A stretch of 64,000 nucleotides of DNA from Opitutales bacterium. Its GTDB lineage: Bacteria; Verrucomicrobiota; Verrucomicrobiia; Opitutales; PNEW01. Where the stretch lies: positions 32,001-96,000 of the forward strand of contig CBDANS010000005.1 of NCBI GenBank assembly GCA_965197745.1, in the 5' to 3' direction. This document shows, piece by piece, positions 24,353 to 63,224 of the stretch; within the stretch, counting starts at the first letter, position 1, and the number at the start of each line of letters is the position of its first letter. A program made the translations under genes and the position numbers. The notes under the pieces were generated by a model, which was not told the origin of the DNA, ran no database searches, and saw only the letters and a program-made list of their open reading frames with translations.

Positions 24353-24483
24353 CGCCCGTTGGGCTACGGCTGGCAAGCCAGCAATCAGCAGACGAACTCC
24401 ATTAAATATTCGATCGCTCCATTGCCTGGGCGAAGGCTGCGCGCTGTAGTCCCGTGACTGCGGGACGGAGGCGGGCATTTCGT
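24353..24483 (+). repeat. tRNA-linked palindromic repeat R3
   Basis: Tandem copy of R2 with an eroded left end. Confidence 0.9.
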
Positions 24484-24610: not shown

Positions 24611-24859
24611 TTGTCTGTGACTTACATCTACATAATCGAAAGCATATATAATCGAAAACAGCATTATGTTGGTCTTACTGATGACTTAAAATCCCGTTTA
24701 CGCGATCATAATTCGGGTAAGTCGTCACACACCGCACGATTCAAACCATGGCACCTAGTTTGCTACTTCGCGTTTGCGGAAGAAAAGACAGCAAGAGTCT
24801 TTGAAAAGTATTTAAAATCCGGATCCGGTAAGTCGTTCTTGAAACGTCATTTCATTTAA
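24611..24859 (+). CDS. Small stand-alone GIY-YIG endonuclease
   Basis: YIYII...HYVGLTDDLKSRLRDHNSG...PW.LV.Y..F...A..FEKYLKSGSG; the GIY-YIG Tyr, Arg, His and Glu residues are present. Confidence 0.92.
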   Translation: MSVTYIYIIESIYNRKQHYVGLTDDLKSRLRDHNSGKSSHTARFKPWHLVCYFAFAEEKTARVFEKYLKSGSGKSFLKRHFI

Positions 24860-24952
24860 CTTCGCCCCCCGCGGTGGCGGGACTGGCAGGCCAGCAAACA
24901 GCAATCGAATCGCCATAGAACTTCAGGCACTCTATTGCCTGGGCGAAGGCTG
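24860..24952 (+). repeat. Palindromic repeat R4, starting right after the GIY-YIG stop codon
   Basis: CTTCGCCCCCCGCGGTGGCGGGACTGGCAGGCCAGC-N38-ATTGCCTGGGCGAAGGCTG; lacks the distal GTAG hairpin. Confidence 0.9.
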
Positions 24953-25003
24953 GCAGGTCGGCTATCTAACTAGCTATTCTAAATTCCCCGAAGGTGAGGC
25001 AAC

Positions 25004-25886
25004 TTAAAGTTTTTCCGGCGGTTCTTCAATATCTTCTTCGGGATTGGCACTTGGCACAGACACTCCCTTGGATTCCAGTTCGGCCGCGAGTTGCTCTAAT
25101 TCTGTCTCTCTTTCCTGCAGGCCTTGCGCCTTATCGAACAGCGTGTTTTCACTCGCTTCGAGAAAATCTTCCCGCTCCTTTACCATCGCTTCCATTTCCT
25201 GCATCGACTGTTCCCGGGCATCCAATTCCTCTTTTAACTTTAACAATTCGGGTTCTATATCCTTCGACATCTGTATATCGCTTGAAGCCCCTTCCTCACT
25301 TTGTTGACCTTCTTTTGCTTTCTCTAATTCGTCTCTGAGCTATTCCAGTTCAGTTTCTTTTTCCTGCAAACTCTGTGATTTATCCAGCAAAGTGTTTTCA
25401 CTTGTTTCCAAAAATTCCTCTTTTTCCTTTAAAGCATTTTCGCGCTCATCAAATTCAGCCTGAAGCTGCTGCAATGCCTTTTCCGTTCCCTCTTCCATTT
25501 TCCCTTCTTCCTGCATGCTGCTTTGTTGTGATCCAAGGAGCTTTTCTCGTGCCGTTAAAAGGGCCTGGGATTCTCGTAAATTCATCTCGCGGGCCAAGAG
25601 CAAAGCTTCATTCTCTTTCAATGTTCTTTCGCCATCTTCGAGGGCTGCTTGAGATTCCTGTAATGACCGCTCACGTTCATCCAAATGGACTTCTTTTTCC
25701 TGTAAAGATTTCTCCCGTTCGTCTATTTCAGTACGGAATTTTTCTTCATGACTCTCTTTGGATTGCTTTGTTCTGGAGAGGATGGAATCTATGCTCATTC
25801 CCCCCTGACTCTGAACAGCTCCGGGACTTCCCGCTTCTCCGGGACTTACCGCTTCTCCGGGACGTCTGAGGCTCAATTGAGGGTAT
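25004..25886 (-). pseudogene. Glu/Lys-rich coiled-coil protein, 5'-truncated by the IS and with an in-frame TAG at 25340
   Basis: ORFs 25340-25912 and 25004-25270 share a frame. The internal repeat FLE.SENTL.DK.Q.LQE.ETELE(Q)L shows Gln at the TAG position. Confidence 0.75.
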
Positions 25887-27236
25887 TGATTGGACCCCGT
25901 TTTTCGTACCAATTATTAAGTGAGAGAGTTCCCGGGTATTAATGGTTTTAGGATTGATGTATATGAGAGATCTTGGCGAAGTGAGGGCGTAGCCCGAACG
26001 CGGCCAAGATCTGAAAGGAATGTGACAAACTCTTGTGGGCTTTTAAAGCCTAAACGACTGTGGGGATGATCATGGTTATAGGTCTGGCGCCATTGTTCGA
26101 TTACAACTTGTGCTTCAGCCACGCTGAGCAACACTTCACGGTTCAAACACTCATCGCGTAAGCGGTTGTGAAACGACTCGATGAAACCGTTTTGCCAGGG
26201 ACTGCCCGGATCGATATATATCGCCTTGATCTTTTTGTCGGACAACGACTGCTGCACTTGATGAGCAATGAATGGCTTCGCATGTCGTCGCTTCGCTCCT
26301 CGGAACACTGCCGTTGTCACTACGGATATAGCTGGGAGCTCCCTCCTTTTCAATGGCCTCGCTAAGCACAGAGAGGACATCCGATGAGGGGAGTTCACGA
26401 GCGACCCGGATATCCAGACATTCACGCGTATATGTCTTCGCTTCGCTTGAGTGTCGTCGCTTTCAGCTCCTCGGTACATCGATCAGAGTCATCATCTTTA
26501 ATGGACCGCCATGGTCTGTGCGATCATGGACAAAGTCCCAGGACCAAAGGTGATTGCGACCGGTTGCTTTAGTAGGCGACCCCGTAGAGACCCCTTGACG
26601 GTGTCTACGCTTTTTAGGTGGCTTTACCTGCAACCCTTCTGAACGTCGTACCGCCTGAACAAACTTCCTGTTTGTTGTCCAGCCTTCCTTTACGAGCAAG
26701 GCACGGATGCGCCGGTAACCGTAGCAGGGATGTTCCCAGGACAGGGTTATAATCCGCTCGGCCAACCGCTGAGCTTTCTTACTGGCCTGCTTGGGCTGGT
26801 AGCTGAAAGTTGACCAACTGAGGCTGAGGTAGGAACAAGCCCTTCGCAACGAGCACAGCCCTCTCTCAGCCGCATCTTTTACTACTCGCTTCTTCTGCTT
26901 GGGGCTCACCACTTTTTTGACAGCGTTTCCTCCATTACCTGATTCTTAAGCATTTGATCAGCGAGCATCTTCTTCAACTCGGTGTTTTCTTTTTCCAGCT
27001 CTTTAAATCGCTTCGCATCGGCTAGTTCCAAATTGCCATACTTTTTACCCCAGCGATAGAAGGTCTGTTCACTCACGTTGTTGCCTCGGCAGATTTCCTC
27101 TACCGTTTTTCCGGTATCGGCTTGCCGCAGTATTGCGATGATCTGTTCTGTTGTGTATCTTTTTCTTTTCATGAGGTTATCTGTTTATCCCGATAACCTC
27201 TCTCTGTTAATGATACCATTTTTGGGGGTCACTCCA
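25887..27236 (-). mobile_element. IS3-family insertion sequence, inactivated
   Basis: Imperfect terminal IRs TGATTGGACCCC.../TGGAGTGACCCC... orfA 26906-27172 (HTH_Tnp_1-like). A6G slippery site at 26912-26918. orfB has WSWDF, RSDNG and PWQNGFIESF but is broken by two small inserts. Confidence 0.92.
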
Positions 27237-61569: not shown

Positions 61570-61666
61570 GTCATTGCGAGGGAGGCTATCAGCCGACCGC
61601 GGCTACCGAGCGCAGCGACATCTTCCACTCCAGGGGATTGCTTCGTCACGTTGCCTCTCGCAATGA
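61570..61666. repeat. GTCATTGCGAG-type palindromic element
   Basis: GTCATTGCGAG...CTCGCAATGA; a shorter version of 63091-63224. Confidence 0.8.
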
Positions 61667-63090: not shown

Positions 63091-63224
63091 TTGTCATTGC
63101 GAGGAAGGCTATCAGAGCCGACCGTGGCTACCGAGCGCAGCGACACCATCCACTCCAGGGGAATGCCGGTCACGTATTGACATCTCCCTAGATTGCTTCG
63201 TCGCGTTACTTCTCGCAATGACAA
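63091..63224. repeat. GTCATTGCGAG-type palindromic element
   Basis: TTGTCATTGCGAGG...CTCGCAATGACAA. Confidence 0.85.

Follow-up and report, generated by a model that had tools for sequence, protein, structure and literature searches.

Short REP-related inserts at fixed codons of IS3-family transposase genes in an Opitutales bacterium

The repeats SDR1-8 of Nostoc punctiforme are reportedly 21–27 nt long and mobile in appearance, being present or absent at given places and nested in other repeats, and the palindromic elements of Rickettsia are said to be selfish repeats of 100–150 bp that reside in frame in coding sequence, often at loop positions. The present analysis concerns short inserts in the transposase gene of an IS3-family insertion sequence (IS) from a 64,000-nt stretch of an Opitutales genome (the window). 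A first-pass annotation of this window had pointed to two related micro-insertions in the transposase gene and to a shorter relative within repetitive extragenic palindromic (REP) elements. The inserts and their relatives, referred to here as modules, resemble SDRs in size and nesting but come from a different phylum and are not known to be related to them in sequence, and we know of no report of SDRs recurring at the same codons of transposase genes. Unlike the Rickettsia elements, two of the inserts (numbered 2 and 4 below) shift the reading frame, while insert 1, which is in frame, brings a stop codon.

For CGTC-tagged REPs, Di Nocera et al. 2013 (PMC3733652) describe a terminal CGTC/TGTC tag, an 8-9 bp stem that begins with AT, a loop of 4-5 nt and an unpaired CCA tail, and give no known transposase for REPs of the CGTC type. 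By this description, palindromes of the present host (TGTC-ATTGC...GCAAT-CCA) are similar to CGTC-tagged REPs but contain a large inner hairpin, and the REP-type modules share with these REPs a GAG-hairpin-(C)GAC core and a CCA tail but lack the outer stem. The modules differ from CGTC REPs in being single units of 23–45 nt, smaller than a REP, that occur at fixed transposase codons and, in the case of inserts 1 and 2, lack a proper stem. In REPIN/RAYT systems, as outlined in a preprint by Nielsen & Hansen (2024), the mobility of short hairpin repeats is attributed to a domesticated, IS200-like Y1 transposase present in a single copy. Unlike REPINs, the modules are not doublets, and the gene in this genome that resembles a REP-associated tyrosine transposase (RAYT) is not flanked by REPs, scores below the family cut-off and is frameshifted. 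In word searches of the open-access literature, no listed title or abstract opening described modules of this kind recurring at set codons in transposase genes of the IS3 family, which is no proof of novelty.

The inserts are best read as REP- or SDR-like miniature repeats that inserted as discrete units. More specifically, both segments are, with a probability of about 0.6, DNA modules of 23–45 nt, kin to the arms of CGTC-type REPs, that were inserted as discrete units by a DNA enzyme.

Inserts in the transposase gene and their junctions

The two segments were found exactly at the positions, and with exactly the letters, given in the first-pass annotation:

26434..26476, minus strand: insert 1, a 43-nt module, TACCGAG-GAGCTGAAAGC-GACGACAC-TCAAGCGAAGCGAAGAC, replacing one A of GAA
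26274..26305, minus strand: insert 2, a 32-nt module, TTCCGAG-GAGCGAAGC-GACGACAT-GCGAAGCC, replacing one A of GAA

On the minus strand, positions 26476..26434 read ...ATC GAT G[ TACCGAGGAGCTGAAAGCGACGACACTCAAGCGAAGCGAAGAC ]A TAT ACG CGT GAA TGT, with insert 1 in frame and 15 codons lying between GAT and TAT, one of which is TGA. Positions 26305..26274 read ...GGC AGT G[ TTCCGAGGAGCGAAGCGACGACATGCGAAGCC ]A TTC ATT GCT, where a single codon is replaced by 34 nt (net +31) and the frame is shifted by +1. Copies of insert 1 in the genome numbered 32 (at most 4 mismatches) and those of insert 2 numbered 73 (at most 3 mismatches). That these inserts are not due to chance was evident from the 18-mer core of insert 2, CGAGGAGCGAAGCGACGA, which occurs 64 times in the 4.45-Mb genome as opposed to approximately 0 times expected. 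All 64 occurrences are at the RSDNG-x-F site of IS3-type genes with strongly differing flanks. A search of the genome with a pattern of fixed gap gave no match because the gap differs between inserts 1 and 2.

Empty alleles were noted in an alignment of 14 hand-picked A-type copies of the IS (two representatives of young lineages and 12 older copies), in which insert 1 was missing from seven (GATG-AA-TAT) and insert 2 from three (AGTG-AA/AG-TTC). These alleles indicate that each insert replaced one A without target duplication, in agreement with the first-pass annotation, and the inserts are DNA-level gains on an insert-free ancestor. Empty alleles were present in a sister genus and in independent read sets as well. 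Two further sites were seen in the same alignment, site 3 with a 43-nt insert in 11 of the 14 copies (TGGC[...]AAAC), in frame and without a stop, and site 4 with a 36-nt insert in nine (GATG[...]ATGT). The frame is shifted by two of the four orfB inserts. The fifth IS site is the frameshift (slippery) site between orfA and orfB. Presence/absence alleles with exact junctions were found at all five IS sites, in REP arms and in two tRNA-linked pseudo T-arms. Read on the module's own strand, the change was in every case from N-A-R to N[T(A/T)CCGAG....C]A, the junctions lacking one or two target bases and showing no duplicated sequence, and the target consensus, which the first-pass annotation had proposed to derive from empty alleles, was a G/C^A-R(T/A) site. 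Target sequences discussed for the modules are TTCGAATCC, GCAATCCA and GATGAATAT. Loss of one or two bases, lack of target duplication and TWCC...CA ends that are not inverted repeats distinguish the modules from miniature inverted-repeat transposable elements. Echoes of 3 nt between module tail and target flank (TCC-A-TCC, AAC-A-AAC) were seen by eye in three of seven variants, and no claim is built on them.

Each of the four orfB sites coincides with a conserved motif (LID-E-YTRE, DNGS-E-F, PW-Q-NG and RD-E-CLN). The claim that the two original insertions lie beside catalytic Asp residues held for insert 2, which adjoins the second catalytic Asp (SDNGS), but not for insert 1, which follows LID at a conserved Asp, in the turn before YTRE. 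By the rve/integrase fold, the first catalytic Asp is that of WSWDF, 24 residues upstream. The chance that the segments are adapter or assembly artefacts, a check raised with the original claim, is negligible, given that the identical inserts occupy 73 and 32 distinct loci and recur in two other genomes and in contigs of four independent public runs.

Features of the carrier element, designated lineage A1, are as follows:

25887..27236, minus strand: IS3-family insertion sequence, 1350 bp, with ends TGGAGTGACC...GGGGTCCAATCA
26906..27172, minus strand: orfA, 88 aa, with a match to HTH_Tnp_1
26912..26918, minus strand: slippery heptamer A AAA AAG in the orfA/orfB overlap, read from the sequence
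26477..26911, minus strand: orfB segment 1, 145 codons, open
26307..26432, minus strand: orfB segment 2, 42 codons, YTREC...RSDNGS, with the second catalytic Asp
25916..26272, minus strand: orfB segment 3, FIAHQ...PWQNGFIESF...RDECLN..., with a match to rve_3, open to the stop

The ends were set by nine near-identical copies, the flanks of which diverge exactly at TGGAGTGACC and GGGGTCCAATCA; the genome contains approximately 10 copies at 99.6% identity or above and approximately 15 at about 90%. Assignment to the IS3 family follows from the HTH_Tnp_1 and rve_3 matches, the AAAAAAG slippery site, and TG...CA terminal inverted repeats with 4-bp target duplications (in three of nine A1 copies), and an uninterrupted relative in the same genome scored 240 bits on NF033516 (NCBIfam IS3 family transposase, cut-off 160). 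The heptamer is presumably the -1 frameshift site typical of IS3 elements. In orfB segment 3 of the window copy, sites 3 (TGGC-AA-AAC) and 4 (GATG-AG-TGT) are empty, although filled in other copies. Just beyond the right end of the IS, at 25830-25875 on the minus strand, is a short tandem repeat of approximately three units of gtcccggagaagcgg, situated at the beginning of a coiled-coil-rich open reading frame (25340-25912) that abuts the IS end.

Both states of the inserts were also present in read data, which consisted of Logan contigs from two metatranscriptome and two further runs of three studies. Insert 1 was spanned by contigs from both RNA libraries (run X18 record 14, 725 nt, and run X19 record 17) and insert 2 by a contig from one of them (X18 record 13), in each case with no joint. 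Empty alleles of both sites were present as DNA in run X4 (a skip of 43 with one base between for insert 1 and, for insert 2, a skip of 33 in which two bases stood between). A further X18 contig, which lacks insert 2, represents another allele, as its neighbouring bases differ; a matching allele was seen as DNA in X4. At sites 3 and 4, filled alleles appeared in contigs as loose ends or inserted letters, and part of the element had no cover in X19. The inserts are polymorphic in nature. Splicing was rejected as far as the contigs allow: the RNA-library contigs were unspliced and no tRNA splicing endonuclease (EndA) was found in the 92%-complete genome, where RtcB is present but ubiquitous. The contigs leave room for a rare spliced form, and the RNA libraries may contain DNA. 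An alternative code or suppression was likewise rejected, as none of 45 tRNAs has a stop anticodon.

Spread and exchange of inserts among IS3 lineages

Lineages A1 and A2, which are approximately 90% identical and both carry inserts 1 and 2, were compared segment by segment:

orfA: dS 0.62, dN/dS 0.08
orfB segment 1: dS 0.46, dN/dS 0.156
orfB segment 2 (between the inserts): dS 0.90, dN/dS 0.125
orfB segment 3: dS 0.109, dN/dS 0.14

Out-of-frame controls gave 1.0–3.1. The inserts themselves were identical between the lineages at 43 of 43 and 32 of 32 bases (i.e., no change in 75 nt). Compared with dS of 0.46–0.90 in the flanks, this identity indicates that the inserts are much younger than the A1/A2 split, or else strongly constrained, and the low dS of orfB segment 3 points to recent exchange between A1 and A2. 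Mutated inserts were found in old, decayed copies.

Multiplication of broken copies was evident from two observations. The first concerns orfB segment 1, where all 13-14 A2 copies have a TAG stop in common; this TAG is also present in older A-type copies, both those that carry inserts 1 and 2 and those that lack them, which indicates that an already dead lineage multiplied and also came to carry inserts. The second is the clean 4-bp target duplication of three of nine A1 copies with both inserts, which indicates that broken copies move. The inserts break orfB, yet the broken copies keep multiplying. The first-pass annotation had described the inserts as inactivating mobile DNA, which is correct as to effect but not supported as to purpose, since copies with inserts predominate (insert 2 is present in 68 of 76 near-full-length copies) and still transpose. 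It had also asked whether intact IS copies contain the same segments; all young multi-copy lineages carry them and no insert-bearing copy has an open orfB, whereas four insert-free copies exist.

These results bear on the proposal that the inserts are a recoding or regulatory cassette selected in a working IS, where rare full-length transposase would throttle transposition. Proposed routes are, for insert 1, read-through of TGA or a hop (AGC-TGA...AGC) and, for insert 2, a shift of the frame by +1 or a hop of 10 nt (GCG...GCG). Consistent with this proposal, the most prolific lineages all have insert 2, A1 has no other defect, the inserts are perfectly kept between lineages at dS 0.5-0.9 and dN/dS of about 0.1 but decay in dead copies, insert 2 is open in the +1 frame and insert 1 preserves the frame. 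The main point in its favour is that none of 36 A-type copies in the assembly is insert-free, so that a helper for lineage A was not found there. However, the empty alleles are ancestral rather than simple deletions of filled alleles (compare G-AG-TTT of IS-B2 to G[..]A-TTC), the inserts were acquired by, or transferred to, a lineage that a TAG stop had already killed and that nevertheless grew to 13-14 copies, members of the module family are found in non-coding REPs, in tRNA-linked repeats and once in reverse within an IS, and neither a classical slippery motif nor a suppressor tRNA was found. Recoding is accordingly judged very improbable, and the inserts probably do not serve the IS; the modules are probably neither an intron nor a recoding signal.

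Inserts were not confined to A-type elements. A second IS3 element, 'B' (1318 bp, approximately 51% protein identity to A), carries insert 2 at the homologous codon, and in the IS3 clade of lineages A, B and C inserts occupy five fixed sites, each with its own module variant. Some IS-B copies have a module of 23 nt net (site 5), in reverse orientation to the gene, right behind the A8 slippery run. In contrast, lineage D (approximately 10 copies, ...ggtccc-GAG-TTTgcc) and lineage E (one copy, ...ggtcca-GAA-TTTatc) are empty despite a fitting codon. At G000 C6:552641 (G000 being the present genome), the homologous IID-..TRE site of a further IS3 lineage holds a module that resembles insert 1 but has a different inner hairpin, GAGCCGCAGGC.

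In a survey of 76 near-full-length copies, from which inserts were cut out before tree building, insert 2 was filled in 68 copies and empty in 8, all five sites were empty in four copies, all of them IS-B2, and at least four state changes were required on the tree at every site. The IS-B2 clade comprises four empty and nine filled copies that are 0-0.0024 substitutions per site apart. Filled B2 copies have a G-to-A variant of insert 2, also seen in some B1-like copies, together with the neighbouring TTC marker of B1, which would fit recombination or a short conversion tract from B1. The insert-free IS-B copies, four in number, include two canonical ones and two in which a GAG-to-TTTG change fuses orfA to orfB. 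This change, upstream of the slippery site, turns orfA and orfB of IS-B into a single 403-aa frame and scrambles approximately 27 residues of the leucine-zipper region; the fused form is present at C7:1901266-1902590 (L087), at C4:136859.. and in the 17-copy B1 lineage (G000).

Chimeric IS were also noted, in which one lineage upstream and another downstream are joined exactly inside insert 2 (G000 C7:1673295-1674707, A/B; L016, L061 and L067 in the sister genus). To judge from these joints, the shared insert apparently acts as a recombination point that creates chimeric elements. Exchange of this kind is central to the suggestion that each site received a single ancient insertion, now immobile, which was spread passively by IS transposition and by recombination or gene conversion. 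The chimeras (C7:1673295; L016, L061 and L067) agree with it, as do the mosaic exchange indicated by near-identity of segment 3, but not segments 1-2, between A1 and A2 (dS 0.109), the B1 variant and TTC marker in filled B2 copies, and the empty state of lineages D and E, which have fitting codons but are too diverged to recombine with A, B and C. On the other hand, flanks of A, B and C are too diverged for RecA-type exchange and the 5 nt beside insert 2 are lineage-specific, insert 1 does not differ between A1 and A2, despite divergence of its flanks within 11 nt on both sides, and at least three REP sub-types (see below) are each empty and filled with modules of differing inner hairpins, which argues for repeated insertion at one target. 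A single ancient insertion per site is thus considered unlikely, although clearly less so than recoding.

Modules in REPs, tRNA-linked repeats and other DNA

Members of the module family share a head T(A/T)CCGAG, a hairpin of GNA type or longer, the sequence (C)GAC(GAC)A(T/C) and a variable tail ending in CA, and range from 23 to 45 nt. Within the window, the shorter relative named in the first-pass annotation was confirmed at both places, nested in GTCATTGCGAG palindromes and related to the inserts:

61570..61666, plus strand: CGTC/TGTC-type REP palindrome, GTCATTGCGAG...CTCGCAATGA
61604..61627, plus strand: nested REP-type module TACCGAG-CGCAG-CGACATCTTCCA in the site GC-AA-TCCAGG
63093..63222, plus strand: second REP palindrome of the same family
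63129..63152, plus strand: nested module TACCGAG-CGCAG-CGACACCATCCA

Genome-wide, GTCATTGCGAG palindromes occur with and without the module TACCGAG-hairpin-CGACATCTTCCA at GC-AA-TCCAGG, and at least three REP sub-types are each found empty and filled, with modules that differ in the inner hairpin. The core that the inserts had been said to share with arms of GTCATTGCGAG-type REPs was indeed found in common, and the modules resemble the GAG-hairpin-GAC core of a REP arm, but with different sequences around it.

Repeated pseudo 3' halves of tRNA-Asn and tRNA-Gln are located behind these tRNAs, and in these repeats an IS-type module, TTCCGAGGAGC....GCGACGACACAAGCGAAGCGTCC, replaces one A in the pseudo T-loop TTCG-AA-TCC. 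There are two repeat units behind tRNA-Asn and one behind tRNA-Gln (G000 C6:355392-355700, L088; C5:236387-236610, L089), and each unit has, besides the T-loop module, a second small insert (ATGAGAAyC...) in the T-stem. The arrangement resembles that of E. coli RtT, in which partial 3' halves of tRNAs are repeated behind tRNAs, and RtT units are not known to donate inserts into genes. One tRNA-linked unit scored 23.7 bits (E 0.055) against Rfam RtT (RF00391), below the gathering score of 45.

Free-standing copies were also present in intergenic DNA, where a loose regular expression for modules gave 406 matches in the genome compared with 154 in a shuffled genome, so that the list of free-standing copies contains noise. 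Modules of the form TACCGAG-GGCnnnGCC-CGACATCC... also occur in arrays split by hexamer-like repeats (aatccg/aatcgc), reminiscent of the mosaics known as bacterial interspersed mosaic elements (e.g., G000 C6:654302-654342 and C7:1685480-1685520).

Outside this genome the inserts were rare. Among 201 genomes of the order, insert 2 (at most 3 mismatches) was found 73 times here and 12 (G032) and 14 (G060) times in the sister genus, and was absent from the remaining 198. Related IS loci in named records carried inserts, in other combinations, in 8 of 55 cases, all 8 from one Opitutales metagenome-assembled genome. The REP-type module pattern was found 57 times here and as single matches in 7 of 300 other Verrucomicrobiota, of which three look genuine. 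The exact 24-mer of 61604-61627 was present at six loci in metagenome contigs, all in the same REP context, while insert 2 had no match in JGI metagenome contigs. Single-copy module loci of other Opitutales matched no Rfam family.

The distribution of modules does not support the preference for mobile DNA that the first-pass annotation had suspected. Modules are at least as common in REPs, in tRNA-linked repeats and as free-standing copies, lineages D and E are untouched, and absence from core genes is expected of any insertion under purifying selection. The same considerations apply to host-directed tagging, in which a cellular system would disable IS3 transposase genes by writing REP-derived cassettes into their conserved codons. 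Such a system would account for the position of all four orfB sites at conserved motifs and of the fifth at the frameshift site, and for the same cassette at the same site in diverged lineages without conversion of flanks. However, neither a guide or array nor a dedicated gene was found, REPs and intergenic DNA contain modules at no lower frequency, and tagged copies keep spreading. Defence-like tagging of mobile DNA was therefore not borne out, and a host-directed system of this kind is held to be highly unlikely.

Candidate enzymes, mechanism and implications

The first-pass annotation had further suggested a search for a co-occurring reverse transcriptase, nuclease or RAYT gene. Reverse transcription by a retroelement was rejected, as no RVT_1 match was found in the 92%-complete genome. 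A GIY-YIG nuclease gene near the IS was also rejected, having two homologues in the genome and no link to modules. The reading frame in question (24611-24859, plus strand, 82 aa, GIY-YIG type) is situated, like a small cassette, between direct repeats cyATTGCCTGGGCGAAGGCTG (approximately 24425-24447 and 24944-24966), and its two tblastn matches in this genome were itself and one homologue. The search did turn up a weak RAYT-like candidate, a single Y1_Tnp (Y1/HUH) gene that is closest to the NCBIfam REP-associated tyrosine transposase. Homologues of this gene are intact in both other module-bearing genomes, with frames of 333-347 aa (347 aa in G032), and no match was found in an 82%-complete fourth genome of the family.

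Several findings weigh against the favoured explanation (i.e., DNA modules inserted as discrete units by an enzyme) or against this candidate as the enzyme. With regard to the modules, lineages A, B and C share the same variant at a given site despite a protein identity of only about 51%, as would not be predicted from a freely moving pool of modules, and the 5 nt beside insert 2 remain lineage-specific (CAGTG, TTCCG, ATCGG, TTCGG) rather than co-converted. This pattern needs either variant-specific targeting or some precise transfer, and is not given by ordinary gene conversion. Random insertion at N-A-R does not predict the placement of all four orfB sites at conserved motifs, and the missing helper of lineage A belongs with these points. 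Inserts 1 and 2 folded no better than shuffled sequences on either strand (z +1.3 to +1.7, DNA folds). GCGAAGC mini-hairpins are extra stable, a property that is not part of the computed folds. With regard to the enzyme, the RAYT-like gene scored 66.6 bits on NF047646, below the cut-off of 80, and in the present genome (G000 C6:162147-163742, L056) its frame is broken after 198 aa into two overlapping frames of 198 and 171 aa, which reflects either a pseudogene or an assembly error. A REP motif was located within 100 nt of the gene at only one of five loci and never on both sides. Module orientation with respect to replication was without bias (54 leading, 42 lagging, p=0.26), which counts against a mechanism acting on single-stranded DNA of the lagging strand, as such a mechanism would predict bias.

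A single-copy RAYT gene flanked by its own REPs, as in REPIN/RAYT systems, was not found, and the modules also differ from the IS200/IS605 type in that left flanks vary (CAGTG, TTCCG, ATCGG, CTGGC, CTTAC) instead of forming a fixed target of 4-5 nt, and orientation is unbiased. Given the score below cut-off and the lack of REP flanks, strand bias and folding excess, the case for an HUH enzyme is weak, and the RAYT-like Y1/HUH transposase is doubtful, although not far-fetched, as the inserting enzyme.

According to the favoured explanation, modules would enter sites of the form 5'-N^A-R-3' (G^AA^T or C^AA^T in most cases) and replace one or two bases without target duplication, examples being the tRNA T-loop (TTCG^AA^TCC) and the REP end (GC^AA^TCCA). 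Insertion would be carried out in trans by a sequence-specific DNA enzyme, for which the RAYT-like Y1/HUH transposase is the sole candidate seen. Broken IS copies would be non-autonomous and moved in trans by a few intact copies (the four insert-free IS-B copies), and recombination among IS copies, often inside inserts, would shuffle the inserts between them.

A more specific version of this explanation is that each variant is a sequence-programmed 'homing' micro-element or host cassette with a target of 8-10 nt set by the variant, operating without a reverse transcriptase. A target specified by the variant would explain the same variant at the same codon without conversion of the flanks. As it stands this version is speculative and unlikely, to about the same degree as a single ancient insertion per site. 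If it is true, the homing module would prey on transposase genes, REPs and T-loop-like sequences and would be, to our knowledge, among the smallest site-specific mobile DNAs.

Mobile or mobile-looking DNA of less than 50 nt is barely documented, and the present genome provides clean material, with five sites in empty and filled states, a simple junction rule, several variants, and three polymorphic genomes as well as read sets. If targeting is encoded in the module, the modules would offer a novel means of steering short insertions to selected sequences. For the IS3-family elements of this host, the favoured explanation means that insertion sequences may themselves be parasitised, with a broken population that would persist on a handful of intact helpers.

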